The translations under genes and the position numbers were made by a program. 64,000 bases of DNA from Deltaproteobacteria bacterium (GTDB taxonomy: Bacteria > Myxococcota > Kuafuiibacteriia > Kuafuiibacteriales > Kuafuiibacteriaceae): assembly GCA_040218735.1 (NCBI GenBank), contig JAVJQW010000011.1, forward strand, positions 32,001 through 96,000. Direction: 5' to 3'. The notes below the pieces were generated by a model. The model did no database searches, was not told the DNA's origin, and was given only the letters and a program-made list of their open reading frames with translations. Numbering within the stretch: position 1 is the stretch's first letter; each line of letters starts with the position of its first letter. This document shows, one piece after another, positions 4,015 through 56,807 of the stretch.

Positions 4015-4142
4015 CACGCCCGCGGTCACAACCAACGACCGTCGAGGCTGCTTCCCCAAACGCCTAGGGGCCCGTGCGGGAACAAGGTGGCCGTTCTCCG
4101 CGAGCGCCGCCGAGAACGGTCAGATTATCCCCGCACCGGCCC

Positions 4143-4379
4143 TTAGGTGCTGACGAGGCAATAGCGACCGTCGAGCTGCACCACGCGCCACCGCGCGCCG
4201 CGCCACTCGACGACCTGCTCCGCGCCGACTTCGAGCTCGGTACCCGTGAGCTTCACGCGAACGACCAAACCGTCCTCGACGACCGCGCCGTCGTGCACGT
4301 CGATCGCCGGGACGCCGCGCGGCGCCTCGTCCGCGACCGGTGTCGTGCCTTCCGAGAAACGATTCGTCTTCGGCTTCAC
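4143..4379 (-). CDS. Small beta-rich hypothetical protein (78 aa)
   Basis: GTG start overlaps the upstream TGA (GTGA coupling); protein-like composition. Confidence 0.65.
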   Translation of the reverse strand: MKPKTNRFSEGTTPVADEAPRGVPAIDVHDGAVVEDGLVVRVKLTGTELEVGAEQVVEWRGARWRVVQLDGRYCLVST

Positions 4380-6289
4380 AGGCGATCTTCTCCGCGCACG
4401 AACCCGTCGGCCCCCGACGAGAACGACGCGACGTCGAAGTCGAACCCTTCGTCCTTCGGCGTCACCCCGACGATGACGGTTCTGAACCCCGGGAACAAGG
4501 CGACCTCACCGCGCGCACCTTCGAGGTCCCCCTCGGAGAACAGCGGCGACTCGTCCGGGTGCGAGTGCACCTTTGCGCGGATGTCGAGGCCGAACGCCTG
4601 TACCAGCCGGTCGACGTGTTCGACGTCCTCCGGGTGCACCACGCCCATCGAGTGGCCCATGTCCGTCCCGTGCAGCAGGTTCCGCACCGGCAGGAAGCGG
4701 TGCGCCGCGCCGTCGTAGACGAGGTACCCCATCCCCTCGAACGGGAACGCCTCGGCCATCGCCGACTTCATGTCCGCGACCACGCCGGGCTCGAGCCCCA
4801 GCTCGTTCGCCCCCAGGTTGCGCTCCAGCGCCTCCGTCTCGCGCACCGTCTGACGCGCGGCGATCGAAGCCTGCGCGAGCGCGTCGACGTGACCCGCGAG
4901 CTCCTGCGCGACGACCTCGATGCCGTCACGCTGACACTCGGCGACGAGACCATCGACCACGGCGTCGAGCGCACCTTCACCGCGCGCCCACTGCGCGAGC
5001 GCGCCGAGGCGCTCGGACGCCTTGCCCTCTCCGGGCGGGCCATAGCGTTCCAGCAGCGCGACCGTCCCCTGCCGAACCGCCGCCGAACGCGGCCCCGCGT
5101 CGCGGAACATCCGCGCGACGGACGCGAGCTCGGGCCGGCGCCCGATCGCATCACGGAGATCATCACCGATGCGGCGCAAGCCATCTTGCAACAGACGCGC
5201 GTGCAAGTGCTCCGCCTTCGCGCCGATCGGCCCCGGCGCGTCGAGGTCCGCGAACACCCGGCTCCCGTGCCGCGGGTCTGCGAGTGACGCAATCGTCGCC
5301 GCGACGTCCACGTTCGACGTGACCTCGGCGGCGAGCTTCGGGCCGAGGTGTTTCTCGAGCGACTCGAACACCAGACCCAGACGATCTCCAGCCAAGCGTT
5401 GCCGGTTCACCATCGCGACGAACACGTCGTCGTGGGACGGGCCCGCGACCGGATCCGAGAGCCCCTCCGCGATCCGCTGGGCCTGCGCCTGGAGGACCTC
5501 GGAACCCTTGGGATCGATCGTGAGTGCGCGCAGCGAGGCACCGGTCGCAGAACCTCCGCGCCGCGCCTCGATGTCCTCCATCGTCGCGAAACGCTCGTGC
5601 GCGGACTGCATGAAGTTCGCGAAGCCCGCGAGGTCGGAGGCGTCCGCGCCCGCGAGCTCGGTGAGGAACGTCTCCGCGGAGTCGATGCCACACGCCTGCG
5701 CGAGGGCCCCCCACGCAAACGGGGACGCGCGCCCCACGCGATCGATCAGCATCGCGAGATTCGACGTGTCGTCCTCGGCGGTGTGTGAAGCCACGACCGC
5801 CGTCGCGATCGAACGCCCGAGCGCGAGCTGCGCACCACCGCTGGTGTCGACGTTGGGACGCGGCGCCGCCGCCCGCATCAGCGCGGCGAAGCTCGTGGTG
5901 ATGCTCGCGTCGTCGCGCGCGAGGAGCTGCTCCGCGGCCTCTTCGGCCGTCATCAGCGGCGAGTGACCGCACAGGGTGTGAGCGACGTCGAAGAGCGCGT
6001 CCGAGAACGCCTGCCGATTGACCGTGCCGTCCTTGCCAGCCGCCAGGACACTCGCGAGCTTCGCGGACCCACCGCCTTCGGCCATGCGTTGTCCGAGCAC
6101 CGCCTCGAGCGCCCACACAAATTCGGTCTTGGCGTTGCCCGAGAACGCGGCCTTCTCGAACTGCGCCGCGAGCTCCGGTCCGAGGAGGTCCGCCGGTGTG
6201 GTGCGCGGCGCTTCGGGCTCCTCGGTCTTCGCGGTCCGTCGAACCCGGTTGGTGTTGTCCGCCGCGCCGGGTCCGCCCAGCGGTTTCAT
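4376..6289 (-). CDS. Large helical protein with C-terminal JAB/MPN+ (JAMM) metalloprotease domain
   Basis: FEGMGYL...HSHPDESPLFSEGD matches E-xn-H-x-H-x7-S-x2-D exactly. ATG at 6289 overlaps the upstream TGA (ATGA). Confidence 0.8.
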   Translation of the reverse strand: MKPLGGPGAADNTNRVRRTAKTEEPEAPRTTPADLLGPELAAQFEKAAFSGNAKTEFVWALEAVLGQRMAEGGGSAKLASVLAAGKDGTVNRQAFSDALFDVAHTLCGHSPLMTAEEAAEQLLARDDASITTSFAALMRAAAPRPNVDTSGGAQLALGRSIATAVVASHTAEDDTSNLAMLIDRVGRASPFAWGALAQACGIDSAETFLTELAGADASDLAGFANFMQSAHERFATMEDIEARRGGSATGASLRALTIDPKGSEVLQAQAQRIAEGLSDPVAGPSHDDVFVAMVNRQRLAGDRLGLVFESLEKHLGPKLAAEVTSNVDVAATIASLADPRHGSRVFADLDAPGPIGAKAEHLHARLLQDGLRRIGDDLRDAIGRRPELASVARMFRDAGPRSAAVRQGTVALLERYGPPGEGKASERLGALAQWARGEGALDAVVDGLVAECQRDGIEVVAQELAGHVDALAQASIAARQTVRETEALERNLGANELGLEPGVVADMKSAMAEAFPFEGMGYLVYDGAAHRFLPVRNLLHGTDMGHSMGVVHPEDVEHVDRLVQAFGLDIRAKVHSHPDESPLFSEGDLEGARGEVALFPGFRTVIVGVTPKDEGFDFDVASFSSGADGFVRGEDRL

Positions 6290-7575
6290 ACCCCGTACTC
6301 CGAGCGGTCCGCGCCCACGACGACGGCGAGCCCGGCGTCCTTGAAGCGCTGCTGGGTCGACTCCACCTCTTCCGCGGTCACCGGCCGATCGATCTCTGGC
6401 GAGCGGAACGTCGTGAACGTCGGCGTCCACTGGTCCATCAGGTGGACGCGCATGTCCTTCGACACGGACGCGAGGAAGTCGGCGATCTTGCCGGAGTCGG
6501 TGACGTCATCCGGCATGATGAGGTGCCGAACGAGGAGCCCCTCGTACGCGACGCCGCGGTCGTCCTTCTTGAGATCGCCGACCTGCCGGTGCATCTCGCG
6601 CACGGCCTCCTGCACGTTGTCCCAGTAACCCTTCGTACCGCCGTAGCGCTGCCCCGCGTCGTTGTTCCCGAACTTCACGTCGGGGAGGTAGACGTCGACG
6701 ATGCCGTCGAGCTCCTTCAGCGCGTCGAGGTCTTCGTAGCCGCCTGTGTTGTAGACGAGCGGGATCTTCAGCCCCTGGTCGGCCGCCATCTGCACCGCCT
6801 CCAGGATCTCGACGATGAAGTGGGACGGCGTCATCAGCTGGATGTTGTGCGCGCCGCGGTCCTGCAAATCGAGGAAGGTCTCGGCGAGCTCCTTCACCTT
6901 GATGTCGTCGCCGCCCTTCATGTGCGCGATGTCCGCGTACTGGCAGAACGAACACGCCATGCTGCAGCTCGAGAAGTAGACCGTGCCGCTCCCCTGCACG
7001 CCGGAGATCTCACGCTCCTCGCCGACGTTCAGGTTCTTGCCGCCGATGCGCAGCGGCACCTTCTTGCGGAACACGCCGTACTTGTCGGTGTCGCGGATGT
7101 CCTTCAGACGGTCGATGCGCTCCTTCAGCTCGCCGCTCTGCGCGAGCGCAACGTAGCTTGCGGGACGGAAGACGTCGTCCGCTCCGCCCGGCCAGTCGAC
7201 GCGGAACTCCGCGAGGCGCGCCTGCTGCTTTTCGTCCATGCAGATGGCCTGCGCGAGCGGCACCTGCTCCATGGTGAGGTCGAGGAACTCGAGCGTCCCG
7301 TCGTCCCGGATGTGCAGCGAACCCTGGTCGTAGCTGACGTCGCTCTTCGCAATCGTCCGCAGCGCGACCAGCGACTCCTTCTCCGCGGGGGTCGCCTTCT
7401 TGTACGGCGTCCGCTCCTGCGAGGACGTAGCCGCGCGTTCAAAACCGCCCTGCCCGGCCGGCGCCTTCGCCTTCTTCTTCGGCGCGGACGCAGACGACGC
7501 ATCGCCCGAGCCGCGCACCTGGGTGCCCGACTCGGTCGGCGTCGCCCCGCCGGTCTTGCGGCTCGCGCGGGTCAC
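6286..7575 (-). CDS. Radical SAM protein, PflX-like, with N-terminal extension
   Basis: GSGTVYFSSCSMACSFCQ (CxxxCxxC), HNIQLMTPSHF, PLVYNTGGY, DVYLPDVKF, EMHRQVGDL, GLLVRHLIMP. Confidence 0.85.
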   Translation of the reverse strand: MTRASRKTGGATPTESGTQVRGSGDASSASAPKKKAKAPAGQGGFERAATSSQERTPYKKATPAEKESLVALRTIAKSDVSYDQGSLHIRDDGTLEFLDLTMEQVPLAQAICMDEKQQARLAEFRVDWPGGADDVFRPASYVALAQSGELKERIDRLKDIRDTDKYGVFRKKVPLRIGGKNLNVGEEREISGVQGSGTVYFSSCSMACSFCQYADIAHMKGGDDIKVKELAETFLDLQDRGAHNIQLMTPSHFIVEILEAVQMAADQGLKIPLVYNTGGYEDLDALKELDGIVDVYLPDVKFGNNDAGQRYGGTKGYWDNVQEAVREMHRQVGDLKKDDRGVAYEGLLVRHLIMPDDVTDSGKIADFLASVSKDMRVHLMDQWTPTFTTFRSPEIDRPVTAEEVESTQQRFKDAGLAVVVGADRSEYGV

Positions 7576-7576
7576 G

Positions 7577-7858
7577 CTACTGCTTGGAGGCGTTGAGGCC
7601 GACCTCGCCGCGCACGACCTTGCCCGGATCGTCCGGCTTGTCCTCGAACCGATCCGTGTTGCGCGCCTCGGTGATCTCCAGCCCTGCGAGCGACTGGAGC
7701 GCCGCGTAGTGCAGCGCCGCGCACGCGTCGCCGATCCCCTGGCCGCTGTGGTCGCTGATCTCGACCTTGTCGCCCGTGATCGAGATGTTCATCTGGACGT
7801 CCACCACGTAGGTGCCGTCGGTCATCGCCTTGAAAGGCTTCGCTCGAATATCGCTCAT
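7577..7858 (-). CDS. Small protein, possibly DUF2997-like
   Basis: GAGGAG RBS. 'ISITGDKVEI...GIGDACAAL...LAG' recalls the DUF2997 pattern; lies in an operon with a Ycf46-like ATPase. Confidence 0.5.
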   Translation of the reverse strand: MSDIRAKPFKAMTDGTYVVDVQMNISITGDKVEISDHSGQGIGDACAALHYAALQSLAGLEITEARNTDRFEDKPDDPGKVVRGEVGLNASKQ

Positions 7859-7868
7859 CTCGTGCTCC

Positions 7869-8540
7869 TCAGGTCTGGACCATGGCGCGACGCCGACGCG
7901 CCGCAACCGCCGCGCGCGTCCGCTCGGGCATCTTCAGATCCCCGGAGTGCTGCGCGATGACACCCGCCGCCTGGCTGGACGCCTTCGGGTTCACGACCAC
8001 CTTGGCGGTGAACTTGATGTCGAGGCCGCCGTCCGGACGGACGACGACGTTCGGCTCCACCATCATCTGCGGGTTCTTCTCGATGTGCGTGAGCACCTGC
8101 CCCGCGCGCGCGAGCTGCACGACCTTCTTGATCGCGGCTTCGACCTTCGCCTGCGTGAGCCCCACCGCGCTCGCGGTGATCGTCGCCTGGCCGTTCTCAC
8201 CGGCCTGGTACTGGAGCGTGAGCCCGTCGACGCTGATGTTGTTGCCGTTCACCTTCACGTCGAGGCTCGGGATGCGCGAGTCGGAGAGCGCCTTGTTCAC
8301 GTCCTCGAGGTTCACGCTCATCTGCGCCTGCACGCGGTTGGGCTGCGGAGCGCGGTACACGACCTGCGTGTAACCGTACGTCCGCCGCGACTGCACCGCG
8401 CCCGAGAAAGCCGCGAACGCCGCACCGGCCTCCGCTCCGACCCCCTCGGTCGTCGACGCCGCCTGCGTCGCCTGCGCCGCCGGCTGACCGCTCTCGACCT
8501 CACCGGCCGCGAATCGTCCGTTGTCGTTCTTGATCTTCAT
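7869..8540 (-). CDS. Hypothetical protein, possibly DUF1257/Ycf35-like, with N-terminal extension
   Basis: AGGAG RBS; starts 4 bp after the upstream stop. 'NLEDVNKAL...IKKVVQLARAGQVLTHIEK...VRPDGGLDIKF' resembles the DUF1257 C-terminal helix plus DG hairpin. Confidence 0.5.
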   Translation of the reverse strand: MKIKNDNGRFAAGEVESGQPAAQATQAASTTEGVGAEAGAAFAAFSGAVQSRRTYGYTQVVYRAPQPNRVQAQMSVNLEDVNKALSDSRIPSLDVKVNGNNISVDGLTLQYQAGENGQATITASAVGLTQAKVEAAIKKVVQLARAGQVLTHIEKNPQMMVEPNVVVRPDGGLDIKFTAKVVVNPKASSQAAGVIAQHSGDLKMPERTRAAVAARRRRAMVQT

Positions 8541-8544
8541 GCCA

Positions 8545-11043
8545 TCACTCCTGCGGCGGCGCCGCGTCATTCTCGACGACGTTCACCGGTACGCCTTCGC
8601 CGACATCCGGGGCCGACGCATCCTTCTTGATCGTGCGCGACTTGCCTTCGAGCGCGTCGCGAATCCCTGCGCTGTCGATCTGCTTGAGGACCTCCGCGAT
8701 GAGGTCCTTCGGCACGTGCGAGCGCACGAGCCGCAGCACCTCGCGGTCCCCCTTGTCGGCGGCGGCGCGAACCAGGCCGACCATCGCTTTCTCGGTCATC
8801 AGGTTCGGCACGGCGAGCCTCAGCGCCGCCTCCAACCGAACCATCGCCTGGTGCTGCCCCGCGTCCATGTCCTTGACGTCCGTCCCGACGGTGTCGTCCG
8901 CCATCTGGACGATCGCGTCGCGCGCCAGCTTCGTCGTCTCGACAGAACCCGCGAACGCGAGCGCGATGGACGACGGGTCCTGCTTCAGGTCGACCATGTT
9001 CCCGAGCTCTTCGCGGTTCGCGAACTTCCCGAGATCACCGATCGCGCGCGCGAGGCTCACGTGCCCCTGCGGCTGCCGAAGCACCAGCTCCGCGACGCGC
9101 CGCACGCTCCCCGAGAGCAGCTCGACATTCGATACGGTCTTCAGCGCTGCGAGCGCGTCGGCCGCGCCGTTGACCGAGACGTTCGCGCCGCCCCACTGCA
9201 CGTTCTGCGGTCCGTTGGCCTGCGGGACCTCCTCGACCAGCTTGTCGAGGAGCTCGTTGGCCTTGTTCATCGAGCCGATGTCGTCACCGTGCCGCGCGAG
9301 CACGCCGACGAGCCCGGCGACGAACGGCGACAACCTGAAGCCCGCCCCTTCGACCGCGGTCTGGACCTTCGACACGAGGTCCTCGGTCTGCTCGGGCGAA
9401 AGCGGCGCGTCCGCGTTCGTCAGCGCGTTGAGGATGCGCTGCGCGGCCGGGAGCTGCATCGGTTTGTTGGGATCCAGCGCGACCTCGATGCCGCGGAGGT
9501 AGCTCTGGCCGATCCACTCCTCGGTCGGCTTCTTGCCGAGCTTGCCCCCCTCGGCGAGCGCTTCGAGGCCCGCGTCCGTCGCCGCGGCGAACATCCGCGC
9601 CTGGCGCGCCGGGTTCTGACCGTCGTCGATCTCGTCCCACAGCTCGTCGAAGAACAGCTCGTACGCCTTGTCGAACTGACCGTGCTCCAGGAAGCCGGTG
9701 ACGGCCGCCTCGAGCGCGTTGAGCTTCGTCGTCGCGTTCGTGATGAACTCACGAATCATCTCGACGGCCTTGTCCGCCACGGCGGGATCCCGCGTGAGCT
9801 GACCGACGAGCGACTGCATCGGCCCGTCCTGGTCCATCGCGGCCGCCTGCAGCATGAGCGCCTGGCCCATCTCACACGCGGCGCGGTGCCCCTCCTTCGC
9901 GTCCTTGCTCTCGAGGTCGGGGTAGACCGTCCCGATCAGCTTCACGAAGCGCGCGACGTTCTGGTTGAACGCCGTCACCTCGGTCTTGTGCGCCTTGTAG
10001 GGCGTGCCGTCCTCCTGCGCCTTCGCCTCCGTCAGGACGCCGAGCGCCTCGGGCATGCGCGCGAACAGCTCCGCGTCCTTCTGCGACACCTCTAGCGCCG
10101 AGCCGAAGGCGGCGATCGCCGGAGCGTCGAGCGGCGCCGTCCGCTTCGTCGCCCCCTCGATCATGTTGTCGAGGTGCGCCGCGATACGGCCGCGCGCGGC
10201 CTTGACGTCCGTCGCCTTGCTCGACCCGAGGAAGATCGCGTCGACCTCGATCTGCTTGGCGCGACCGGTCTCGCCGTCGATCTCCTTCGCGAGGCGAGTC
10301 GCCTCGCGGTTGTACTCCATGACCTCGGACTTGGTGGAGCCGAGGTCCGTGAGCTTCGTCAGCGCTTCTTTCAGGACGTTGAGCGCCGCCTCGCGGTTCT
10401 CCGGCGTGCGGTTCTCCGCGACCTGCACCGACTGCACCGCCGCCTTCGCCATGCGCACCAGGAACTCACTCTGCGCCTCGGGCGCGAGGCCGGGCGTCGC
10501 CGCCATCTGGCGGAGCGTCCCGATCAGCTGCATCGGCTCGTCGAGGTACGCCTGGATGTCGGTGTTGCGCTCGATGATCTCGAGGCCCAGCCGCGTCATG
10601 TCGACCTCGGCCGAGTCACGCAGCTCACGCATCTCGCCGAGGTGTTTGTCGAACTCGTCGAGGAAGTCGACGACGAGGGTCCGCTGCAGCACCACGTCCG
10701 CGTCGGCCTTCTTCTGCGCCGACGCCTTCGCGCTGCCCGACGCGATCATCGCGAGGTAGCCCTTGAACGCCATCAACAGCAGCGGGTCCTGCAGGACCTT
10801 CTCCTGGAACGCGACGTCGAGCCGGTCGGCGCCGACGATCGCCTCCTTCGCCTCGCGCAGCTTCTCTTGGAACTGCTCGGTGGTGATGCGCTTCGAGAAC
10901 ACCCCCGAGTCGTTGCCGAACAAACGCGTCGCCGCCTTGTCGACGACCGCGGTGAGGTCCGAGAGGCCCACGCGCTGGGTCGACGCCGCCTCGGACGTGA
11001 CGTTGGCGCCGGGTGAGAACCGGTTTCCGTTCTGAATCTTCAT
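8545..11043 (-). CDS. Large alpha-helical hypothetical protein (832 aa)
   Basis: Long ORF with strong GC3 bias, purine-rich RBS (GGGAGAG) and A/E/L/K-rich helical composition. No recognised motif. Confidence 0.8.
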   Translation of the reverse strand: MKIQNGNRFSPGANVTSEAASTQRVGLSDLTAVVDKAATRLFGNDSGVFSKRITTEQFQEKLREAKEAIVGADRLDVAFQEKVLQDPLLLMAFKGYLAMIASGSAKASAQKKADADVVLQRTLVVDFLDEFDKHLGEMRELRDSAEVDMTRLGLEIIERNTDIQAYLDEPMQLIGTLRQMAATPGLAPEAQSEFLVRMAKAAVQSVQVAENRTPENREAALNVLKEALTKLTDLGSTKSEVMEYNREATRLAKEIDGETGRAKQIEVDAIFLGSSKATDVKAARGRIAAHLDNMIEGATKRTAPLDAPAIAAFGSALEVSQKDAELFARMPEALGVLTEAKAQEDGTPYKAHKTEVTAFNQNVARFVKLIGTVYPDLESKDAKEGHRAACEMGQALMLQAAAMDQDGPMQSLVGQLTRDPAVADKAVEMIREFITNATTKLNALEAAVTGFLEHGQFDKAYELFFDELWDEIDDGQNPARQARMFAAATDAGLEALAEGGKLGKKPTEEWIGQSYLRGIEVALDPNKPMQLPAAQRILNALTNADAPLSPEQTEDLVSKVQTAVEGAGFRLSPFVAGLVGVLARHGDDIGSMNKANELLDKLVEEVPQANGPQNVQWGGANVSVNGAADALAALKTVSNVELLSGSVRRVAELVLRQPQGHVSLARAIGDLGKFANREELGNMVDLKQDPSSIALAFAGSVETTKLARDAIVQMADDTVGTDVKDMDAGQHQAMVRLEAALRLAVPNLMTEKAMVGLVRAAADKGDREVLRLVRSHVPKDLIAEVLKQIDSAGIRDALEGKSRTIKKDASAPDVGEGVPVNVVENDAAPPQE

Positions 11044-11070
11044 GACTGTTCGCTCTCCCTGACCTCGGCG

Positions 11071-13308
11071 TCAGACCGAATCCATGGCCGACGGGTTCAC
11101 CCCCGCGCGCCGCGCCGGACGCTCCGCCGAGGGCGCCTCGCCCTGCTGCGCCGCCGGTGCCACCGGTGCCTCGCCCGTGCTCGGGTCGAGGATCGCCTTC
11201 CCGCTCGCCGACTCGTACGCCGACGCCTGCGCCAGGATGACCTGCGCTCGGAACGGGTCCTTCTGGTAATCCGTGCGGTACCCCTCGAGGCCCTTCTCGA
11301 TGTCCTTCAGCGAGATGACCTCGTCCTGGTCCGGACGATCCACCAGCGCGACTTCGCGGGCCGCGTTGATCGCGTGGTAGACCTCGCGACCCGAGATCGT
11401 CGGGAACGCCTCCACCAGCTTCTTGATCTGCGCCGGCTTGAGATCGTGCCCGTCCGTGAGCGCGTCGAGGTTCGACTTCCAGATGTCGGCGAGCCCCTCG
11501 GCGTCCTGGTAACCGACGAAGTACTTCGCCGGCGAACGGCTGACGAACGCGCTCGACAGCTTCTGCGGCTCGTTGCACGTGCCGAGCAGGAGGATGTCGC
11601 TCTTGTGCTCCTCGATCCACGTGAGGAGCAGGCCGTGCACGCGGTCGGTCACGCCGCCGTCGTGCGCGCTCGTGCCCTCCGCCGAACCGCCGAGCGCCTT
11701 CTCGATCTCGTCGAGCCACACCACGCAGGGCGCGAGCGACTCGAGCAGCTCGAACATCCGCGCGAAGTTCGACTCCGACTCTCCGACGAACTTGTTGAAG
11801 AGCTTCGCGAGGTCGACCTTCACGAGCGGCATGTCGAGCTTCGACGCCGCGCTCTTCGCGACGAGTGACTTACCCATGCCGGGCACACCGGCGAGGAGCA
11901 TCATCTTCGCGGCCTGCAGCGGCTTCTTGCGGGTCTGACCGGCCTTGAAGACCGCGCGCAGGCGGTCGAGCTTGTTCATCACCGCGCCGAGGCCCATCGG
12001 CTCCGGCATGTTCGGGTCGTGGCGGACGAGCTCGATGTTGAAGTTCTTCTTCAACATGTCGAAGCGACGCCGCGAGATGAACTCGAAGTCGATGCGCCGG
12101 TCCGAGCTCCCCGACGCGCGGCTCACGGCCTCACCCATGAGGTCCTTCGCCTGGTGCGTCGTGAAGCCGATCAGCTGCTGCGAGAGATCCGGGAGCGTCT
12201 TGCCCTCGGGCAGGAACTCCTTGAACTGGTCGAGCGTGATCCCGTCCGCGATCGCGTTCCGGATCATGCCTTCCTTGAGGTCGTCGCCGACGACCTCAAG
12301 CCAGGCGCCGATCTCCTTGTCGGTGACGTCCTCGGGCGCCTTCTCCTCGCCCGCCGCGCGACCCCACAGGTAGCCGGTGACGGAGCCGAACACGAGCCCG
12401 GCCATCATCCGCTTGGTGGGCATCGGCATCGAGTAACCCGAGCCGAGCTCCGCGGCGGTCGTCGGCATCATCGACGGACCGTCGTTGAAGATGATGTGTT
12501 TCGTCGTCGACGTGGTGTCCATGCGACCGCGCATGTCGACGAGCTGCTGGTAGATGCGCCCGTTGCCGACGGCGCCGTCGAGGTCCGCGCGCAGGTGCGG
12601 CCCCATACCGTTGAGCGTGAAGATGATGCGACCGCGTTTGTCCTGGTTGCCGGCCTGGACCCGGTCCACGGCCTGGAGCGTCTCGTTGGGGCTGAGCAGA
12701 TCGTTGATCGCGTCGGTGCCGTCGCTGCCGTACAGGAGGCGCTGCAGCCCCTTGTTGTTGTACGTGCTGCGCTCGGTCTCGTCCGTGAGGTCCTTGTACG
12801 GGACGACCGTACCGTTGTCGTCCGAGTACGCGACCGGCGTGCCGTCCTGCGGGTACAGCTCGAGCCACCCGCCCGCCGAGGACCAGGTGATGAGGCGGAC
12901 CGGCCCCGCGTCGACGTCTTCACGCGCGAACGTCCCGGCGACCTTGACCGAGGCCGCGAGCACGCGGTCGGGCTGCGTGCCTTCGCTGAAGATGTACGGC
13001 TGGCCGCCGTGCACGTGGTAGTAAAGCTCGGCCGACGGGTTCTCCGCCGCGGACTTGCTGCACACCGCGCCGATGGAAGCGAGGCGCCCCTCGAAAGCGT
13101 CGAGCGTCTTCTGCATCGCCGCCGCGATCGCGCCCAGCGCACCGCCCTGCTTGCGGGTGGGGTTGAACCGGCCGCCCTGCGGATCCGGTAGACCGCTCGC
13201 GGCCTGGAAGCCGAGTTGCTCGGCGCCGCGCTGTTGGGTCTCGGCGACCGGCGTGGCTTCGTTCGCCCCGCCGGCATTCGTCTTCAGGCCGTCGTTCTTC
13301 AGCTTCAT
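11071..13308 (-). CDS. AAA+ ATPase, Ycf46-like
   Basis: Walker A GVPGMGKS, FVGESE pore loop, APCVVWLDEIEKAL (Walker B), DGGVTDRV..LLTW, GTCN. N-terminal half appears to be a degenerate P-loop domain. Confidence 0.85.
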   Translation of the reverse strand: MKLKNDGLKTNAGGANEATPVAETQQRGAEQLGFQAASGLPDPQGGRFNPTRKQGGALGAIAAAMQKTLDAFEGRLASIGAVCSKSAAENPSAELYYHVHGGQPYIFSEGTQPDRVLAASVKVAGTFAREDVDAGPVRLITWSSAGGWLELYPQDGTPVAYSDDNGTVVPYKDLTDETERSTYNNKGLQRLLYGSDGTDAINDLLSPNETLQAVDRVQAGNQDKRGRIIFTLNGMGPHLRADLDGAVGNGRIYQQLVDMRGRMDTTSTTKHIIFNDGPSMMPTTAAELGSGYSMPMPTKRMMAGLVFGSVTGYLWGRAAGEEKAPEDVTDKEIGAWLEVVGDDLKEGMIRNAIADGITLDQFKEFLPEGKTLPDLSQQLIGFTTHQAKDLMGEAVSRASGSSDRRIDFEFISRRRFDMLKKNFNIELVRHDPNMPEPMGLGAVMNKLDRLRAVFKAGQTRKKPLQAAKMMLLAGVPGMGKSLVAKSAASKLDMPLVKVDLAKLFNKFVGESESNFARMFELLESLAPCVVWLDEIEKALGGSAEGTSAHDGGVTDRVHGLLLTWIEEHKSDILLLGTCNEPQKLSSAFVSRSPAKYFVGYQDAEGLADIWKSNLDALTDGHDLKPAQIKKLVEAFPTISGREVYHAINAAREVALVDRPDQDEVISLKDIEKGLEGYRTDYQKDPFRAQVILAQASAYESASGKAILDPSTGEAPVAPAAQQGEAPSAERPARRAGVNPSAMDSV

Positions 13309-13387: not shown

Positions 13388-13393
13388 ATTATA
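13388..13393 (-). promoter_or_regulatory. Putative sigma70 -10 box (TATAAT) for the AAA operon
   Basis: Perfect TATAAT on the minus strand in an AT-richer intergenic region, about 80 bp upstream of the ATG. No canonical -35. Confidence 0.5.
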
Positions 13394-19198: not shown

Positions 19199-21049
19199 AT
19201 GCGATGCGTGGACCGCACGCACTTCGACGTCACGCCGGGCGTGCAGATCGGTGAGTACGTCGTCGAGAAGGAGCTCGGGAGCGGGACCTTCGGCAACGTC
19301 TACAAGGCCGTCCACCCGCTGATCGCGAAGAAGGTCGCGATCAAGGTGCTCTCCGCCGACTACTCGAAGAACGAGGAGGTGGTGTCTCGGTTCGTGACAG
19401 AGGCGCGCGTCGTCAACGAGATCGGCCACAAGAACATCATCGACACGTTCTCGTTCGGCGAGCTCCCCGATGGGCGCCAGTACTTCGTGATGGAGTACAT
19501 CGACGGCGAGCCGCTCGACGAATACATGGCGCGCTTCGACGGCCAGGTCCCGCGGGCCGACACCCTCGCGATCCTCGAAGGGGTCGCCGCCGCGCTCGAC
19601 GCCGCGCACGCCGCGGGGGTCACCCACCGCGACCTGAAACCGGCGAACGTGTTCGTCGCGAACGACGACGGTCGCCCCTTCGCGAAGCTCCTCGACTTCG
19701 GCATCGCGAAGCTGCGCTCCGACGAGATGGAGCAGAAACACCGCACGGCGACGGGCATGGCGCTCGGCACGCCGGCGTACATGGCGCCGGAGCAGTGCCA
19801 GGGCCACGCGGTGGATCACCGCGCGGACATCTACGCGCTGGGGGTGATGACGTACCAGCTGCTGACCGGGGAGCTCCCGTTCGACGGGACCGCGTTCGAG
19901 ATCCTGATGCACCACGTGCAGACGCCGCCGCCGTCGATCGGCGACGCGACGCTGCCCGGGACGCTCGTCCCGATCGTGAACGGGATGTTGGAGAAGGATC
20001 CGGCGATGCGGCCGCCCTCGGCGGGGTTCGCGATCGAGCGCCTCGTCGAGATGCTCGGGAGCCAGCAGAACACCGCAGCGTCCGTCGCGACCGCGGCGCT
20101 GCCGGCCGTCACGGCGACGATGACGCCCGCCCCCGCCGTCGCCGCGCCGTCCGAGCCGGAGCCGAAGCGTCGTACGGGGATGATCGTCGGCGCGCTCGGC
20201 GTGTTCGCCTTGGTCGGCGTCGGTGCCTTCGCGCTGACGCCCAAGGATCCGCCGCCGCCGCCCGAGAAGAAGCCGGCCGCCATCGAGCCGCTCGCAGCCG
20301 CGATGCACGCGGTCCCCGCCGGCGACTTCCTGATGGGCTGCAACGCCGAGGTCGACGCCGAGTGTGACGAGGACGAGCCCAAGCTACGCTCGACGCCCGT
20401 CGCCGCGTTCGAGATCGACGAGACCGAGGTGACGGTCGAGGCGTACGCGAAGTGCGTCGACGCGGGCGCGTGTGACGCGGAGGGCCTCGACACCCCGTTC
20501 TGGAAGGAAGGCGACGAGCCGGAGAAGGCGCACCCCGAGTGGGCGCACGCCTGCAACTGGGGCAAGGACGGCCGGAAGAGACGGCCGATCAACTGCATCA
20601 CCTGGGCGCAGGCGGACACGTTCTGCCGGTGGCAGGGCAAGCGCCTCCCCACCGAGGCGGAGTGGGAGAAGGCTGCGCGCGGAACGACCGGCAAGAAGTA
20701 TCCGTGGGGCAACGACGGCTTCGACAAACTCTCCGCCCCCGTCGCGAACATCGCGGACGTCGCGATGAAGAAGGCGCGCGACGTCGCCTGGGCACACGCG
20801 ACCTACGACGATGGCGCGGAGCTGTCCGTCGACGCCGGACAGCTCACCGCGGGCGCGTCGCCCTACGGCGCGCTCGACATGATCGGCAACGTCTCCGAGT
20901 GGACCGCCGACTGGCACGACCCCGGCAAGACCCGGGTCACCCGCGGCGGCTCCTACGACAAACCGGCACAGATGGCCCGCGCGTCGTTCCGCAACGCGTC
21001 GTTCCCGACCTGGCGCCAAGACGACGTGGGGTTTCGGTGTGTCCGATGA
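19199..21049 (+). CDS. Ser/Thr kinase - TM - FGE-sulfatase domain protein
   Basis: LGSGTFG, VAIK, HRDLKPAN, DFG, GTPAYMAPE; TM segment; RLPTEAEWEKAARG, DMIGNVSEW, GFRC. Start at 19199 or GTG 19208. Confidence 0.92.
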   Translation: MRCVDRTHFDVTPGVQIGEYVVEKELGSGTFGNVYKAVHPLIAKKVAIKVLSADYSKNEEVVSRFVTEARVVNEIGHKNIIDTFSFGELPDGRQYFVMEYIDGEPLDEYMARFDGQVPRADTLAILEGVAAALDAAHAAGVTHRDLKPANVFVANDDGRPFAKLLDFGIAKLRSDEMEQKHRTATGMALGTPAYMAPEQCQGHAVDHRADIYALGVMTYQLLTGELPFDGTAFEILMHHVQTPPPSIGDATLPGTLVPIVNGMLEKDPAMRPPSAGFAIERLVEMLGSQQNTAASVATAALPAVTATMTPAPAVAAPSEPEPKRRTGMIVGALGVFALVGVGAFALTPKDPPPPPEKKPAAIEPLAAAMHAVPAGDFLMGCNAEVDAECDEDEPKLRSTPVAAFEIDETEVTVEAYAKCVDAGACDAEGLDTPFWKEGDEPEKAHPEWAHACNWGKDGRKRRPINCITWAQADTFCRWQGKRLPTEAEWEKAARGTTGKKYPWGNDGFDKLSAPVANIADVAMKKARDVAWAHATYDDGAELSVDAGQLTAGASPYGALDMIGNVSEWTADWHDPGKTRVTRGGSYDKPAQMARASFRNASFPTWRQDDVGFRCVR

Positions 21050-22422: not shown

Positions 22423-23700
22423 CTACGGGCGCAGCGGCGCCACTAAGAAGTCAACGTCGACACGACCGTTCTGCGGCGCGCGGTTCGCGACGATCAGCGT
22501 CGCCGTCAGCCCCACGACCACCGCGCCGCCGACGGCCGTCCACACCCACCACTTCTCGTACCACTGCTCCGGTCGCCGCTCGAGCTCGGCCCACACCGCG
22601 GTGGTGTCTCCCGGCTCGACGTAGGCGTCCTGTTGCCAGTCGAAGTACCCGCCCTTCACGAGGCGGACGCTGTGCCGCCCGCTCTTCAGCTCGGGGATCG
22701 GCGGCAGCGGCAGCTCGCCGACGCGCTCGTTGTCGACGTACACCTCGGCGGCTTCTTGCGACGCCGTCACGACGAGCGCACCGCCGCTCGACGCTTCGAG
22801 GCCGAGGAGCGATCGCGCCGCGTGATTGATCGCGCGGATGAGTTGGTCCTCGGTCCCCTTGAACGACTCGGTGATGCGGTTGTCCGTCTTCACCTCGTTC
22901 GGATCGATCAAACGCAACGAGATGAAGTACGTCTCGCCGAGCGTCCCGACGCTCCCGCTGATGAGTTTGTCGACGCCCAGCGCGCCGCCCAGCTCCGCGA
23001 CGCAGGACGTGTCGCAGTCCTCGCCGACCATCTGGTTGAGCTTGTCGAGCGAGAGGAGCGCGACGAGGTCGTCGCGGCTGATCACCGTCGCGCCTTCGAC
23101 GCGTTTGATCGCCGCGGAGAGGAGCTGCGTGAGGTTGGCCGTGACCTTCGCGTCGACGCCCGTCGCTTGAAGGTCCAACACGGCGAAGGAGAGCTTCGTA
23201 CCCTGCGGGAGGTGGTACGCGACCTTGGTCTCGGCGCCCTCCAACCCGAGCAGCCGCGCGACGGCGACCTTCAGCTGGGCGTCGAGCTTCTCGAGGTTCG
23301 GGACGTTCACACTCTCGCGCCCGAGGGGCGCCGCCTGATCCGGCGACACGAGCGTCAGCGTCGCGACGAACGTCTTGCCGACGCGCCCCACGGTCGTCGC
23401 GATGACGAGATCGGTCTTCGACGCCTTGGTGACTTCGGCGACACACGCCGCGTCTTCTTCGCAGCCGACGAGGCCCTTGGTCTTCTCGAGATCGAGGACC
23501 CCCTGCAGCTCCTCGGGCGTCACGACGCGCACCTCTTCGCGCGCACCGAGGGCCTCCGCCATGCTCGCGATCGCCCGGACCCCGACGCTCTCTTCGACGC
23601 CGATGACGTTCGGCTTCGCAAGGAAGACGGAGCGCGTCCCTTCCGCGAGCGCGTCGGCGCTCACGAGGGTGAGCGCGAGCAGGATGCAGGAGCCTTTCAT
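22423..23700 (-). CDS. PEGA-domain membrane-anchored protein with two CsgG/TolB_N-like repeats
   Basis: Signal peptide; two 'C..xCVAE' repeats; AEVYVD..GRHSVRLVKGGY (PEGA); WYEKWWVW TM anchor. Confidence 0.75.
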   Translation of the reverse strand: MKGSCILLALTLVSADALAEGTRSVFLAKPNVIGVEESVGVRAIASMAEALGAREEVRVVTPEELQGVLDLEKTKGLVGCEEDAACVAEVTKASKTDLVIATTVGRVGKTFVATLTLVSPDQAAPLGRESVNVPNLEKLDAQLKVAVARLLGLEGAETKVAYHLPQGTKLSFAVLDLQATGVDAKVTANLTQLLSAAIKRVEGATVISRDDLVALLSLDKLNQMVGEDCDTSCVAELGGALGVDKLISGSVGTLGETYFISLRLIDPNEVKTDNRITESFKGTEDQLIRAINHAARSLLGLEASSGGALVVTASQEAAEVYVDNERVGELPLPPIPELKSGRHSVRLVKGGYFDWQQDAYVEPGDTTAVWAELERRPEQWYEKWWVWTAVGGAVVVGLTATLIVANRAPQNGRVDVDFLVAPLRP

Positions 23701-23757
23701 TCGTGTTTCATCCTACCTCAGAGTAGACGCGCGCGCCGCCCTCGACATTCGGTTCGA

Positions 23758-24216
23758 TCAGCACCCGTCGGTCAGCACACTCTCCGATCGGATCACCTCG
23801 CCGTTGGCGATCTGAGACTCGAACCGGATCGTGGTGAGGCCCCCGTTGAAGTCCACGCAGCTCTTCAGGTGCATCCGAACGATGCCGGCGCCATCGCTCA
23901 TGTAGTTCCGGCGTTCGGACGTGGAGACCTCCGTGACGGTGGTTCCGCCGAGGACGAGCCGCTGCGTTCGGGTCCCGTTGAAGACGAAGTGCAAGCGGCC
24001 GCGGCCGTCGGTGTTCTGGTGCGAAACCCCCTCGAGCGCGACGCAGGACAGGTAGGGTCCGGACGGCGAGCAGGTCTCGCTGCCGTCGTGGACGGTCGTC
24101 TCGGACTGAGCGAGTCCGCTCGTGTCGAGATCGTAAGCGACCTCTTCGTCGGGGCCGCCGCAGGCCACGAGGAGCGACGCGGACAGGAGGGTTGCGGTGA
24201 GCGCTGGTTGGTTCAT
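23758..24216 (-). CDS. Hypothetical lipoprotein
   Basis: Lipobox LLVAC; four further Cys. Confidence 0.65.
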   Translation of the reverse strand: MNQPALTATLLSASLLVACGGPDEEVAYDLDTSGLAQSETTVHDGSETCSPSGPYLSCVALEGVSHQNTDGRGRLHFVFNGTRTQRLVLGGTTVTEVSTSERRNYMSDGAGIVRMHLKSCVDFNGGLTTIRFESQIANGEVIRSESVLTDGC

Positions 24217-24381
24217 GCCCTCGTCCAAAGCAGGCGTCGTGCCACCGCTTCGAACACCGCCGAGGCGCGCGCGTCACCGCGCAGGGCCTGCGTTGATCGT
24301 GTCATGACACCGGTCGCGGGCGCATTCGCTCGCTCTGGACGGCCCTCGTGCTGGCACGTAAGACGCAACTGGGGCCTGTCG

Positions 24382-27300
24382 TTGTTCGCCCGTTCCCGCC
24401 TGCTCGGCGCGCTCGGCGCGCTACTGATGTGCGTCGCGTGCCGATCCGAAGGGCGCGTTGGGCTGCGTTTCTCGCTCGAGGATCTCCCGGCGGAGCTCAC
24501 CGGCCTCTTCCTCCACGTGCGCGTCCAGGACGAAGCGGGTGACGTCCTCGGAGGCAGCATCACCGAAGCCGACCGCGACGTTCAGCTCGGGCTGTCCGTA
24601 CCGCACGGCGACGATCGGCGCGCCGTCGTCGAGCTGCGCGACAGCGCGTCGCCGACGAGCTCCAACGTGATCGCGTACGGCGTCTCCGCGCCGTTCTCCC
24701 TGCATCCGAACGACAACCGCGTCGTCGAGGCCGTCGTCGTGATGCGACGGGTACCCGCGATCGTCGACCTCGTCGCGCCGTCCGTCGTGAACACCTCCGA
24801 CGTCCCCGTCTCGGTCACCGCCGATCGAGGCGGCGTCGTGCAGCTCGTCCTCGCGCAGGACCCGAGCCTCACGTTCGGGCGCCAGGTCTTCGACTTCACG
24901 GAGGACCTCGACGTCACCTACGACATCGACGCCGCGTGCCGCGCGACGAACACCTGCACCGACGGGCGACGCAACGTGTTCGCGCGGTTGATCGACGAAG
25001 CCGGCTACAGCTCGACGTCGACGTCGACGCCGGTGGTCGTGGACACGCAGCCCCCGCGTGTCCTCGCGGGCGCAGGCTCGGTACGTTTCGTAGCGCCCGC
25101 GGGCCTCCTCACCCCCACCGCGGCGAGCGCCGGCGTGACGGTGCGGTTGTCCTTCGTGTTCGACGAGCCGGTCACGAGCACGCCGTCCGTCACGCTGGAG
25201 TCCGGGCTCGACTTCACCCTCGTGAGCGAAGCCGCGGGCGCGTACATCTTCGAACGTATCGTCGTGGCGACGGATCCGGAGGGCGTGCAACGGCCACGCG
25301 TTCAGGCGCGCGACGAAGCGGGCAACGAAGCGCCCGTGGTCGCCCCCGACCTGGCGTATGTCGTGGACCACGTGCCCCCCGATGCGCCGCGCGTCGACGT
25401 CCCGGGGGCGATCGTCTACCGACGCATCCCCTACCGCGACGCGTCCGAAGGCGGCGCGTCCTTCACCGTGGTCGGCGCGCCCGGCGCGGTCGAAGGCGGC
25501 GCGCGGGTCGTCGTCTACGACCGCCCCGACGCGTTCCTCGACGGCCTTGAGGTCGCCACGCGCGCGGGCGCAGCGACCGCCGACGACGACGGGAGCTTCG
25601 TCGTTCAGCTCGCGCCGGTGGACCGCGCGCAGGTCTACGTCCTGGTCCTCGACGCCGCCGGCAACCCCCACACCACCGACCGCTCCGCGGCGCGCGTGCG
25701 TGACGTCGAGTGGCGCCTCCCGGCCGGGGTGCGCTCGGGCAGCCAGCCCCCGGTCGAGGTGTTGACGCTCGACCGCCTCCACGACTCGGCGCGCCTGGAT
25801 CACGCCGGCGTCACGACCGTCGACGCGTCGCCGCTCGCGCTCGCGGACGGGCTCGCGGTCGAGTCGCACTACGATCCACGGTGGACCGAGCGGCTCCCGG
25901 CGCCGACGGCGCTGCCCGACGCGCTCCGCTTCGCGGCGATCGCGAACGACCCGGCGCGCGATCGCGTCGTTCTGTACGGCGGGCGCTCCGCGGGCGACGT
26001 CGTGCGCGGTGAGACGTGGGAGTGGGACGGGCGCCAGTGGGAGTCGATCGCAACGAGCGGCGTCCTGCCGTCGTGCGACGACGGCTCCGCGGACGGCGAC
26101 GATCCGTTCGGGGCGATGAGCTACCACGGGGCGCTGGGGCTCTCGATCCTGATCTGCCGATCGCTCACGCCCAACCAGGCGCCGCCCCTCCCCGCCGGTG
26201 GCGTCGACGCGATGCACGCGTTCGGTTGGGACGGCGCGCGGTGGCGAAGTGTCACGCTCGAGGGCGCACCCGGCGGGCGTTCGGGCGCGGCGTTCGCCTA
26301 CGACCCGAACCACGGGCGCACCGTCATGTTCGGCGGCAACTCCGCCGCGCTCGTGCTCCCGGGCGCGAGCGCGAGCACGCTCGGTGACACGTGGGAGCTC
26401 GAAGCCGTCCCGACCACCACCATCGGCGCACGCGCGCGGCTGCGCTGGATCGAACGGAGCCCCGGGCCCCCCGCCCGCGATCGACACGCGATGGTCTACG
26501 CGCCGAGCCTCGGCGGCGTCGCGATGTTCGGCGGCATCTCGAACGCGCCCGATCGCCACCCCCTCGACGACCTGTGGATCTGGGACGGTACGACCTGGAC
26601 CGAGATCGAGAAGAGCGGCGCGTGGCCTCCGGCGCGCGCGCTGCACGCGCTCGTCTACGACGAACGGAGCGGACACCTCGGCGTGATCGGTGGCGTCGCG
26701 AACGAGCCCATCTCGACGCGCATCGATCAGCTCGACGCCGGCTTCGACGACGCGTGGTGGTTCGACGGCGCCACCTGGACCCGAACCGCGACCGCCGCGA
26801 ACACCCCGCGCGGCCCCGGCCTCGCCGCCACCGGGATGCGAAGCGAGGCCGACGTCTACGTGCTCTCGGGCGCGGCCCCCGGCGCGGCGCCGGCCTCGGC
26901 GCAGACGTTCGTCGCCGACGCGACCCGCTGGTCCGACCGCACGCCGTCCGGCGCGGTCCCCCCGCAGACGGAGCTTCAGTCGTTGCTCTACGATCCGGGG
27001 CGCGACCTGTTCTGGCTGTACGCCGCGCCACGAGGTCCGAGTGGTAGACCCGAAGGTGAAACCTGGTTCTGGTCCGAGAGCGGCTGGCGAATCGTCGACC
27101 AGAACCCGGCGACCGGAAGGGCGTGGGCGGCCGTGTTCGACGTCCGCCGCAACGAAGCGTTGCTGCTCGCCGACTCCGGCGGCCCACTGATCCCGGGAGA
27201 GCTGGCCCCCCGGAAGTACTACTTCGTCAATCGAGGCGCCGGATGGACGGCCACGTCGAGTACGGCCAAGGTCCAGCCTCGACGCCACATCCTTGGGCTA

Positions 27301-37837: not shown

Positions 37838-38794
37838 ATGCAGATCGTCGAGCTCCTCCTCGCTTACGCCGGACCCACGATCGTCGGCCTCGTCTTCGTC
37901 GTGACCGGCTTCCTCAAGCTCGCCGAGCCGATGCCGTTCGGGATGCACCTGCAGAAGCTCGAGCTCGTGCCGCCGAAGTACTTCGCGCGCGTCCTGACGT
38001 TCGCGATCGTCCAGGAGCTCGTGCTCGGCGTCGCGCTCCTCATCGGTTGCGCACCGATGCTCGTCATCCCCCTCGCCATCCTCACCATCGCGACCTTCAC
38101 GATCATCACCCTGCGCGCCGGCGCCGCCGGTCGCATCACCGACTGCGGCTGTTACCAAGGGCTGATCGAGCTGACCCCGAAGCAGAGCGCGCTCGTCAAC
38201 CTCGGCTACATGCTCGCCCTCGCCGCGGCCCTCCCCTTCCGCCTGCACCTCGGCCACTGGGTCACCGGCCTGATCGTCGCCGCCGCCGCCATCGCAGCAA
38301 CGCTCCTCGCGCGCGAGTCGCTGAAGCGCAGCGCACAGATGCGCGACCCCCTCATCGATCTCAACGGCGTCAAGGCCGGCAAACGCTTCGATCCTCGCTG
38401 GACCCCCGGCTGCCCCGTCGACCTCGGCGAAGGCGAACGCCTCGTCGTCTTCCTCGGCCTCGGCTGCTCCGCCTGCAAGCCATGGCTCCCCGTCCTGCGC
38501 GCGCTGAACGCGTCGAACCAGGGGATGCCGGTCATCGGCGTGCTCGCCGGCGACGCTTCGGCGGTCATCGCGTTCGTCGCCGAATACCAAGTGGACCTCC
38601 CGCTCGTCGTCATCCCGCACGGACGATTCAACCGCCTCGTCCGCGGCACGCCGATCGCGGCGCACCTCGTCGATGGACGCATCGAACACCGCTACGTCGG
38701 GGTCCTCCCTCGCGACGTCGCGCTGCGCGCGCGCAATCGTCCAAAGCCGAGCGTCTCAGTGGAATCCACTGAAGCGATCGGGGTCGCCGGATGA
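37838..38794 (+). CDS. MauE/DoxX-like membrane protein fused to a thioredoxin-like domain
   Basis: About 5 TM segments, GFLKL, DCGCYQG (MauE CGC motif), followed by GCSACKPW (CxxC). Confidence 0.8.
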   Translation: MQIVELLLAYAGPTIVGLVFVVTGFLKLAEPMPFGMHLQKLELVPPKYFARVLTFAIVQELVLGVALLIGCAPMLVIPLAILTIATFTIITLRAGAAGRITDCGCYQGLIELTPKQSALVNLGYMLALAAALPFRLHLGHWVTGLIVAAAAIAATLLARESLKRSAQMRDPLIDLNGVKAGKRFDPRWTPGCPVDLGEGERLVVFLGLGCSACKPWLPVLRALNASNQGMPVIGVLAGDASAVIAFVAEYQVDLPLVVIPHGRFNRLVRGTPIAAHLVDGRIEHRYVGVLPRDVALRARNRPKPSVSVESTEAIGVAG

Positions 38795-46269: not shown

Positions 46270-46279
46270 GGAGGAACCG

Positions 46280-46777: not shown

Positions 46778-46904
46778 GCGGTGACGTGTCACAAGCGCGG
46801 GCGGTGACACAGAGGACACGATCGAGGCGCGGCCGCGGTGGCCCGCTTGGTGCATTTCGAAAACGTAGGCGCGACACGATAGGCGCGCGGAGGAATGAAG
46901 AGAG

Positions 46905-56797: not shown

Positions 56798-56807
56798 GGC
56801 CGTCAGT

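Follow-up and report, generated by a model that had tools for sequence, protein, structure and literature searches.

What task could unite a Ycf46-like AAA+ ATPase, a JAMM protease and a radical S-adenosylmethionine (SAM) enzyme in a single operon? The question is raised by 64,000 nucleotides (nt) of a Deltaproteobacteria genome (contig JAVJQW010000011.1, positions 32,001 to 96,000; hereafter the window), in which seven adjacent open reading frames (ORFs) lie on the minus strand with gaps of 27, 4, 10, 1, -4 and -4 nt. The operon is real and conserved, and its core is less unfamiliar than a preliminary description of this DNA had held. Four of the seven roles belong to a known, unexplained module formed by a Ycf46-like ATPase, DUF1257 and DUF2997 proteins and a radical SAM enzyme, and the interest of the locus lies in the tag-like N-terminal tails of its proteins. 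The seven genes, with product lengths in amino acids (aa), are as follows.

11071-13308, minus strand: AAA+ ATPase gene, 745 aa; Pfam AAA match above cut-off
8545-11043, minus strand: helical solenoid gene, 832 aa
7869-8540, minus strand: DUF1257-like gene, 223 aa
7577-7858, minus strand: DUF2997-like gene, 93 aa
6286-7575, minus strand: radical SAM gene, 429 aa; Pfam Radical_SAM match above cut-off
4376-6289, minus strand: helical-JAMM gene, 637 aa; Pfam Prok-JAB match above cut-off
4143-4379, minus strand: 78-aa protein gene, the last of the operon

Do these genes belong together? The gene order, strand, gaps and two 4-bp overlaps first described are exact, and the third-codon-position GC of all seven genes (0.85-0.94) is of the coding type. 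The full set recurs in identical order and with similar spacing in a 22-kb locus of a Deltaproteobacteria metagenome-assembled genome (L001, the second genome in all operon comparisons below), where the flanking genes are unrelated to those of the window. For the first six genes, in operon order, the proteins of the two genomes are 48, 38, 35, 60, 60 and 29% identical. The 78-aa orthologue is weak and syntenic; it is the best of 170 ORFs, with a score reached by 8 of 5,000 shuffles. Because order, spacing and overlaps are kept over this large divergence while the flanks change, the genes are better viewed as one unit than as merely co-transcribed, and we are confident that they form one functional unit, as had originally been supposed. 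What speaks against so firm a view is that the complete seven-gene order is known from two genomes.

Indeed, the system is rare. The ATPase has seven full-length homologues (51-96% identity) among 18 matches from 7,999 scored candidates, and a GTDB genome scan with the same protein gave one full-length orthologue, that of L001, among the 80 retained of 157 relatives. Among 1.84 billion representatives, the solenoid has five matches, one of them the window's own protein, the 223-aa protein has four and the 93-aa protein five, of which a 7,125-aa repeat protein was discarded. For the ATPase, the solenoid and the 223-aa protein alike, the longest contig listed for their homologues is 9,503 nt, and a third operon copy, with those three genes together on one contig of a third genome, is probable.

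If the genes act together, from what did they arise? Very likely, the operon derives from the Ycf46-like ATPase/DUF1257/DUF2997/radical SAM module. Its ATPase comprises a ~60-aa polar tail, a degenerate N-terminal AAA-like domain, an active-type C-terminal AAA domain and a 40-aa C-tail. Specifically, the C-terminal domain holds the motifs GVPGMGKS and VVWLDEIE, the pore loop KFVG and a single arginine, R591, in the second region of homology (SRH). All eight aligned members keep intact Walker A and Walker B motifs and an aromatic pore loop, and this loop points to protein threading, in keeping with the protein remodelling role proposed at the outset. When the N-terminal domain is compared with 14 plasmid and phage ATPases linked to DUF1257/DUF2997, hhalign aligns 219 columns with a probability of 94% (E 9.5e-8). 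A FastTree phylogeny of 118 sequences nests the ATPase in this DUF-linked family, apart from CDC48 and FtsH (supports 0.76-0.91), and an IQ-TREE phylogeny of 53 of the 118 agrees (support 91.6); the trees have long branches, and the sister pair consists of two phage ATPases without the DUFs. The Ycf46-like type that the preliminary description gave this ATPase is thus borne out by the domain match and the trees, where the DUF-linked family, represented by plasmid and phage members rather than by chromosomal cyanobacterial Ycf46, is one that we take to be Ycf46. The SRH motif RxGRFD tells against the assignment: the ATPase has one invariant arginine and a shorter loop in its place. This motif occurs in 10 of 14 canonical family ATPases, so it is not universal.

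The module itself is widespread on mobile elements. Distant relatives of the ATPase occur in 1,170 plasmid and 116 phage records, from which we picked 23 loci by hand for comparison of gene content. DUF2997 accompanies DUF1257 or a DUF1257-like gene in 15 of these (12 by annotation or Pfam, 3 by our own profile, built partly from the same loci), and seven of the 15 (7/23 overall) also carry a short radical SAM enzyme, recognised by profile in six and by annotation at the locus edge in one. Among GTDB loci, 10 of the 80 retained have one or both DUFs. The ATPase, the two small proteins and the radical SAM enzyme are therefore an existing module, although in print only as fragments. Thus the available parts of published papers equate DUF1257 with Ycf35 and give it an MSH start (PMC13060386), report a cyanobacterial DUF2997-ycf35-fed7 cluster (PMC4284462) and describe stress induction of the cyanobacterial ycf46 operon (PMC7496141; 10.1101/2025.07.21.665879). 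In the full-text literature (few subscription papers, main texts only) the plasmid and phage AAA/DUF1257/DUF2997 module is not described as a system, there is no account of the four-part module or of the seven-gene locus, and DUF2997 is named in two distinct papers (three entries). The gene combination that was at first unrecognised is therefore undescribed in these texts as a full set, whereas its four-part core recurs in the seven loci.

Other arrangements were seen around related ATPases. On large plasmids and in tailed phages the module often has a variable partner (HhH, WGR or DUF3150). In a Treponema plasmid (L084), genes for a related ATPase and for a radical SAM enzyme stand between phage baseplate hub and spike genes, without DUF1257 or DUF2997. 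Nine clostridial loci (L045, L046, L049, L056, L059, L060, L068, L069 and L080) share another conserved set around a related ATPase, with proteins of ~570, 165 and 61 aa that have no Pfam match in those scanned. A RadC-type JAB stands beside one plasmid module (1/23 loci); it belongs to a different clade, as far as the available part of PMC5512222 describes these, and was not counted as a precedent for the JAMM protein.

Are the two small operon proteins the DUF1257 and DUF2997 of this module? In the model of the 223-aa protein (mean pLDDT 60, core 67-84), residues 1-62 are disordered and an alpha/beta domain follows, ordered strand-helix-four strands-long helix-two strands, a topology that fits the DUF1257 alignment pattern as judged by eye. 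All ten of its best family-bearing Atlas matches fall in one family, for which DUF1257 is displayed (28% of the cluster), with scores of 0.84-0.86 that have the level of a lead. The best full-length Foldseek match is an unnamed viral protein of 147 aa (probability 1.00, TM 0.48, E 4e-3), the same length as the Rhizobium phage DUF1257 proteins. Its best structural neighbours are KH/TBP-like, with Z up to 5.2, in the range of common arrangements. In the profile comparison members of the 223-aa family take ranks 2 and 4 among 13,486 reported segments, and the other small-protein family is likewise enriched. For the 93-aa protein, which has no long tail, G29, G43, C46 and H50 are invariant; G43-x-x-C46 is present in 6/6 family members and G-x-x-C in 12/12 DUF2997 references. 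A two-sequence profile gave no signal against DUF2997, whereas a six-sequence profile reached a probability of 38% and a score of 24.0 (0/60 shuffles, maximum 15.1; reversed 9.3) with the cysteines in register. Atlas assigned no family to this protein.

Several results count against the identification. The Pfam model of DUF1257 (PF06868) matches 0/4 members of the 223-aa family and that of DUF2997 (PF11211) 0/6 members of the 93-aa family; the DUF1257 model likewise missed both divergent plasmid proteins tested from the same slot. The global profile score of the 223-aa protein is 12.2 versus 10.9 for the reversed control (shuffle maximum 6.5), and a local hhalign comparison with DUF1257 was not significant. 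The MSH start is absent from 5/5 of the 223-aa family and present in 20/26 DUF1257 reference segments. The preliminary description had proposed that the small proteins match DUF1257 and DUF2997; the resemblance in fold and motif gives this indirect support, and the Pfam models do not confirm it. We do not file the two as members of these families, and we consider that they probably function like DUF1257 and DUF2997 and descend from them. The invariant His50 of the 93-aa protein lies four residues after the cysteine, where DUF2997 mostly has threonine (21/24 scored), and one might speculate that it stands in for the histidine lost with the MSH start.

The fourth module role is filled by a different enzyme. 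The radical SAM protein has an invariant CxxxCxxC motif (C204/C208/C211) and a Pfam score of 39.4 bits against a cut-off of 29.5. Its sequence identity is 36-41% with stand-alone enzymes and 19-22% with the short plasmid-module enzymes, and its Fer4_12 score is 20 bits against a cut-off of 22, compared with 24.9 for L001 and 75-108 for the plasmid enzymes. The identity and the Fer4_12 scores argue against orthology with the short Fer4_12 plasmid enzymes of the NrdG activase type. The stand-alone relatives presumably form the PflX-like subfamily. The operon enzyme lacks their extra N-terminal cysteines and has a ~55-aa tail and a ~80-aa additional conserved segment; searches by sequence for a solved structure found none for this enzyme, for DUF1257 or for DUF2997. 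The radical SAM slot has thus been refilled from a different subfamily, which suggests that a radical enzyme is required by the module.

What, then, has the operon added? Relative to the module, the solenoid, a JAMM protease without a ubiquitin-like partner, the other radical SAM subfamily and tails on five proteins are new. The 832-aa solenoid, a new addition with respect to the module's usual partners, is modelled as an all-helical alpha-solenoid (pLDDT 76) of HEAT/TPR/PPR-like arrangement. Fold searches with it gave generic solenoids and no specific relative; its best structural neighbours are PPR proteins, with Z up to 13.7, in the common-arrangement range of the tool. It is disordered at residues 1-54 and 804-832, the latter holding a conserved PDxxExxPVxVV. 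The 637-aa protein has a ~38-aa tail, a ~450-aa region of no known family and a C-terminal JAMM metalloprotease whose motif E...HxH-x7-S-x2-D is intact (E518, H575, H577, S585, D588) and identical in both genomes. The structural match of this domain is 2KCQ, and its type is Prok-JAB/MPN, not RadC. Neither the solenoid nor the N-terminal JAMM region resembles any of 28 partner proteins of the plasmid and phage modules, any locus except L001 or any plasmid sequence, and neither has an internal sequence repeat. The 78-aa protein has a ~20-aa tail, a small domain whose sequence pattern is beta-strand-like and a sub-threshold head-closure match (E 0.22). Pfam, NCBIfam, PADLOC and PHROGs give no family for the solenoid, the 223-, 93- and 78-aa proteins or the N-terminal JAMM region.

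The preliminary description had likened the JAMM protease and ATPase to ubiquitin and proteasome systems, an analogy that the locus weakens: neither a ubiquitin-like protein nor an E1 is present among the 38 window ORFs scanned, and none of the seven operon proteins ends in GG. The JAMM substrate is therefore likely to be something else.

The tails, which like the motif they share went unnoticed in the preliminary description, are the most distinctive addition. Five operon proteins have about 40-60 extra N-terminal residues that are polar and less conserved than the cores, and that are disordered where modelled (pLDDT <50; solenoid 1-54 and 223-aa protein 1-62). They are poorer in hydrophobic residues than nine control genes that lack signal peptides (p 0.006 across the seven operon proteins, 0.002 for the five long tails), and they contain no hydrophobic signal or membrane segment (maximum KD19 1.34). 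Stand-alone relatives of the operon enzymes and ATPase lack such variable polar tails. The start MK[IL]xN occurs in 3/7 operon proteins and 0/18 controls; the weak features that PMC2668754 (available part) reports for type III signals include Ile3 and Asn5. In three proteins that are not homologous, the N-terminus also has a short arginine-phenylalanine (RF) motif.

11014-11025, minus strand: NRFS motif, solenoid N-terminus; TRFQ in L001
8508-8519, minus strand: GRFA motif, N-terminus of the 223-aa DUF1257-like protein; TRFQ in L001
4353-4364, minus strand: NRFS motif, N-terminus of the 78-aa protein; TRFQ in L001

The three TRFQ copies of L001 are written with different codons, they are the sole TRFQ in the six-frame segments of that locus, and their occurrence in three unrelated N-termini was matched by 0/20,000 shuffles and 4/20,000 internal windows. 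One common receptor best explains why the motif changes in concert in proteins that are not homologous, and we think it likely that the tails are a common recognition signal. Some observations argue the other way. The motif was found post hoc, in the window alone it is not significant (3,677/20,000 shuffles), an early RF is found in 3/18 control genes as well, and one solenoid homologue (P0026) lacks it. In addition, the 93-aa protein, which has no long tail, has a conserved N-terminus (17/20).

Taken together, these features suggest a lineage-specific chromosomal expansion of the Ycf46-like module into one unfold-cut-modify machine with a common N-terminal address tag. In such a machine the ATPase would form a hexamer and thread polypeptides, with the 223-aa and 93-aa proteins as putative cofactors, the latter perhaps with a Cys/His metal site. 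The solenoid could be the adaptor that presents the substrate. It may bind the x-D-x-V C-terminus of the ATPase (11071-11090, minus strand), whose short conserved motif MDSV (variants MDDV, MDGV, SDTV, FDQV and LNSV; one homologue deviates) follows a disordered linker and resembles a TPR-docking tail. The JAMM domain would cleave the substrate at a peptide or isopeptide bond, and the radical SAM enzyme would abstract hydrogen from a protein. In the least certain step, the tags might be read by a non-Sec, type III-like route and the parts delivered to a prey or neighbouring cell, where they would act.

Does the tag signal mean export? We tentatively read it so, on sequence features, and a machine with export-type tags is, with like reserve, our best explanation of the locus. 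In favour of export are the tails that the enzymes and the ATPase carry, their likeness to weak type III features, effector-like neighbours in both genomes and the needleless type III secretion system (T3SS*) of Myxococcus, which that organism requires for prey lysis (PMC12075869, available part). The operon tails have the polar, disordered N-terminus and the lack of a Sec signal expected of type III substrates, features that are necessary and not sufficient. In the most far-reaching form of this idea, a predatory-type bacterium would export a whole seven-part machine, like p97 plus the proteasome lid, subunit by subunit through a motif-keyed type III-like route, and the parts would reassemble in the target cell, there to unfold and cleave its proteins and modify them by radical chemistry; we regard this version as doubtful. 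Three points weigh on export in any form: no secretion-system gene is present among the 38 scanned window ORFs, the 93-aa protein has no long tail, and the recipient would have to provide for the refolding and loading of a hexamer, an Fe-S enzyme and a zinc protease. Contractile injection genes (sheath, tube, baseplate) are likewise absent from those ORFs.

Two genes near the operons deserve mention. An NlpC/P60 hydrolase encoded at 1867-2814 on the plus strand of the window, 1.3 kb from the operon end, carries a long extension at its N-terminus, shows no evident signal peptide and is a candidate for non-Sec export. In L001 a 159-aa ORF (19246-19725, plus strand), 41 nt past the operon, weakly matches the Pfam model of an ADP-ribosyltransferase toxin domain, below the threshold (E 0.053). 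The sequence GCCGATAA, which we take to be the sigma-28 -10 consensus, stops 6 nt short of the start codon of this ORF; a single match of that kind turned up within the locus in 17 of 100 shuffles.

Nearly as likely as export is that the same machine works inside its producer, in stress or developmental protein quality control. There the ATPase or the solenoid would recognise the tails and RF motifs as tags for docking or engagement, and the subunits may mature through clipping of their tails by the JAMM protease. This account avoids the refolding problem, and it accords with the stress induction of the cyanobacterial ycf46 operon noted above. The motif lies on three non-enzyme proteins, further conserved short motifs sit in the disordered ends of operon proteins, and the ATPase has an RF at residues 47-48 that is invariant in 8/8 aligned members, though absent from the L001 ATPase. 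Left unexplained by docking are the variable polar tails on the enzymes and the ATPase and the MK[IL]xN starts.

Two further functions seem improbable. The first, the conflict-system option of the preliminary description, is anti-phage defence or abortive infection, with the solenoid as sensor and the ATPase and JAMM protease as executors. Related modules do occur on plasmids and phages, the ATPase has family-level similarity to IetA (E 4e-20), and a helical sensor with an NTPase and a protease is a common conflict design (PMC7159879, available part). Against this, the IetA profile score is 71 versus a cut-off of 510, the other six proteins have no PADLOC match, and the gene content is fixed, not diversifying, between two genomes at 29-60% identity. 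Defence and mobility genes are absent from the scanned window ORFs, and the operon has the same GC as the remainder of the window. The locus thus lends anti-phage defence no support. The second, a machine directed at nucleic acids like the plasmid versions beside HhH, WGR, HNH or RadC genes, draws on the HhH and WGR partners in several plasmid loci and on the KH/TBP-like neighbours of the 223-aa protein and PPR-like neighbours of the solenoid; we give it little credence, as these Z values lie within the common-arrangement range, the partner domains are absent from the operon, and the JAB is of the Prok-JAB/MPN type. Least probable of all are separately acting tagged proteins that are merely co-transcribed: the solenoid, JAMM protease and radical SAM enzyme are indeed unlinked to the module's usual partners and the order comes from two genomes, but that order persists, with its spacing and overlaps, between changing flanks, and the refilled radical SAM slot implies a required role.

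Candidate transcript boundaries of the operon are as follows.

13388-13393, minus strand: TATAAT, candidate -10 box, 80 nt 5' of the first ATG
4060-4150, minus strand: long hairpin over the last stop codon; z -5.8, 0/200 shuffles

The TATAAT box noted previously is present and is the sole copy on both strands of the 64 kb (1.4 expected overall, 0.002 within 150 nt). It has no -35 partner when -35/-10 pairs are scored on the coding strand, it is not preserved in L001, and the upstream regions of the two operons yielded no convincing common element. The hairpin is the probable 3' end of the operon transcript; it has no second copy in the window, and none was seen in L001. An Rfam scan of the window gave zero matches.

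Elsewhere, the window's gene content is myxobacterium-like, with Ser/Thr kinases, PEGA and Kelch proteins and two-component systems. Three tandem large Kelch-propeller proteins (1,300-1,900 aa) are encoded at 22633-36046 on the plus strand. At 37838-47585, also on the plus strand, MauE-like, outer-membrane efflux, C39-peptidase ABC transporter, cNMP-binding and small Peptidase_S74-domain genes stand in a row that resembles a type I export locus serving a protein with a leader. On the minus strand, two adjacent large HATPase_c_3 (MORC/Hsp90-like) proteins lie beside a Ser/Thr kinase (52707-56986).

Why does this matter? Ycf46, Ycf35/DUF1257 and DUF2997 are retained from plastids to phages, with a mechanism that is not known, and the operon variant adds a protease. 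This coupling, together with a radical SAM slot kept by an unrelated enzyme, points to proteins as substrates and to direct assays. The concerted motif in three non-homologous proteins is in turn a handle for finding its receptor. If that receptor is an export machine, the operon would represent a new class of delivered multi-subunit effector, and the motif would define a signal for secretion in a lineage whose genomes are myxobacterium-like.

How does the operon compare with known systems? It shares with IetAS the CDC48-like AAA domain, but falls far below the family cut-off and has no S8 peptidase partner. As in JAB and ubiquitin-like systems, including the FtsH-ternary vWA-MoxR type, it combines a JAB with helical proteins and an AAA+ ATPase; those systems also contain a second AAA+ protein, and one subtype has a radical SAM enzyme (PMC7159879, available part); MoxR, vWA, E1, E2, E3 and ubiquitin-like genes are absent from the operon, and the main text of that paper contains no occurrence of Ycf46. 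Type III substrates, including those of the Myxococcus T3SS*, resemble the operon proteins in having N-terminal extensions that are polar, poorly conserved and free of a Sec signal, and the window is myxobacterium-like; the difference is that no apparatus is encoded among its scanned ORFs. We know of no multi-subunit unfoldase delivered by a type III route. With p97/CDC48 and the proteasome lid the likeness is one of functional analogy: the best solved relatives of the operon AAA domain are CDC48/p97, and a helical scaffold accompanies an MPN+ protease. The operon ATPase, however, has one active ring and lies outside the CDC48 clade, and a ubiquitin-like protein, E1 and peptidase barrel are missing. 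From the Ycf46-like module the operon differs in its chromosomal, non-mobile setting and its longer ATPase (745 aa versus 480-574) with an altered SRH, in small proteins that fall under the Pfam cut-off and lack the MSH start, and in its other radical SAM subfamily, solenoid, JAMM protease, 78-aa protein and tails. It shares with that module a full-length homologous ATPase, a radical SAM gene within the unit and two small neighbours that agree in size, pattern and predicted topology.

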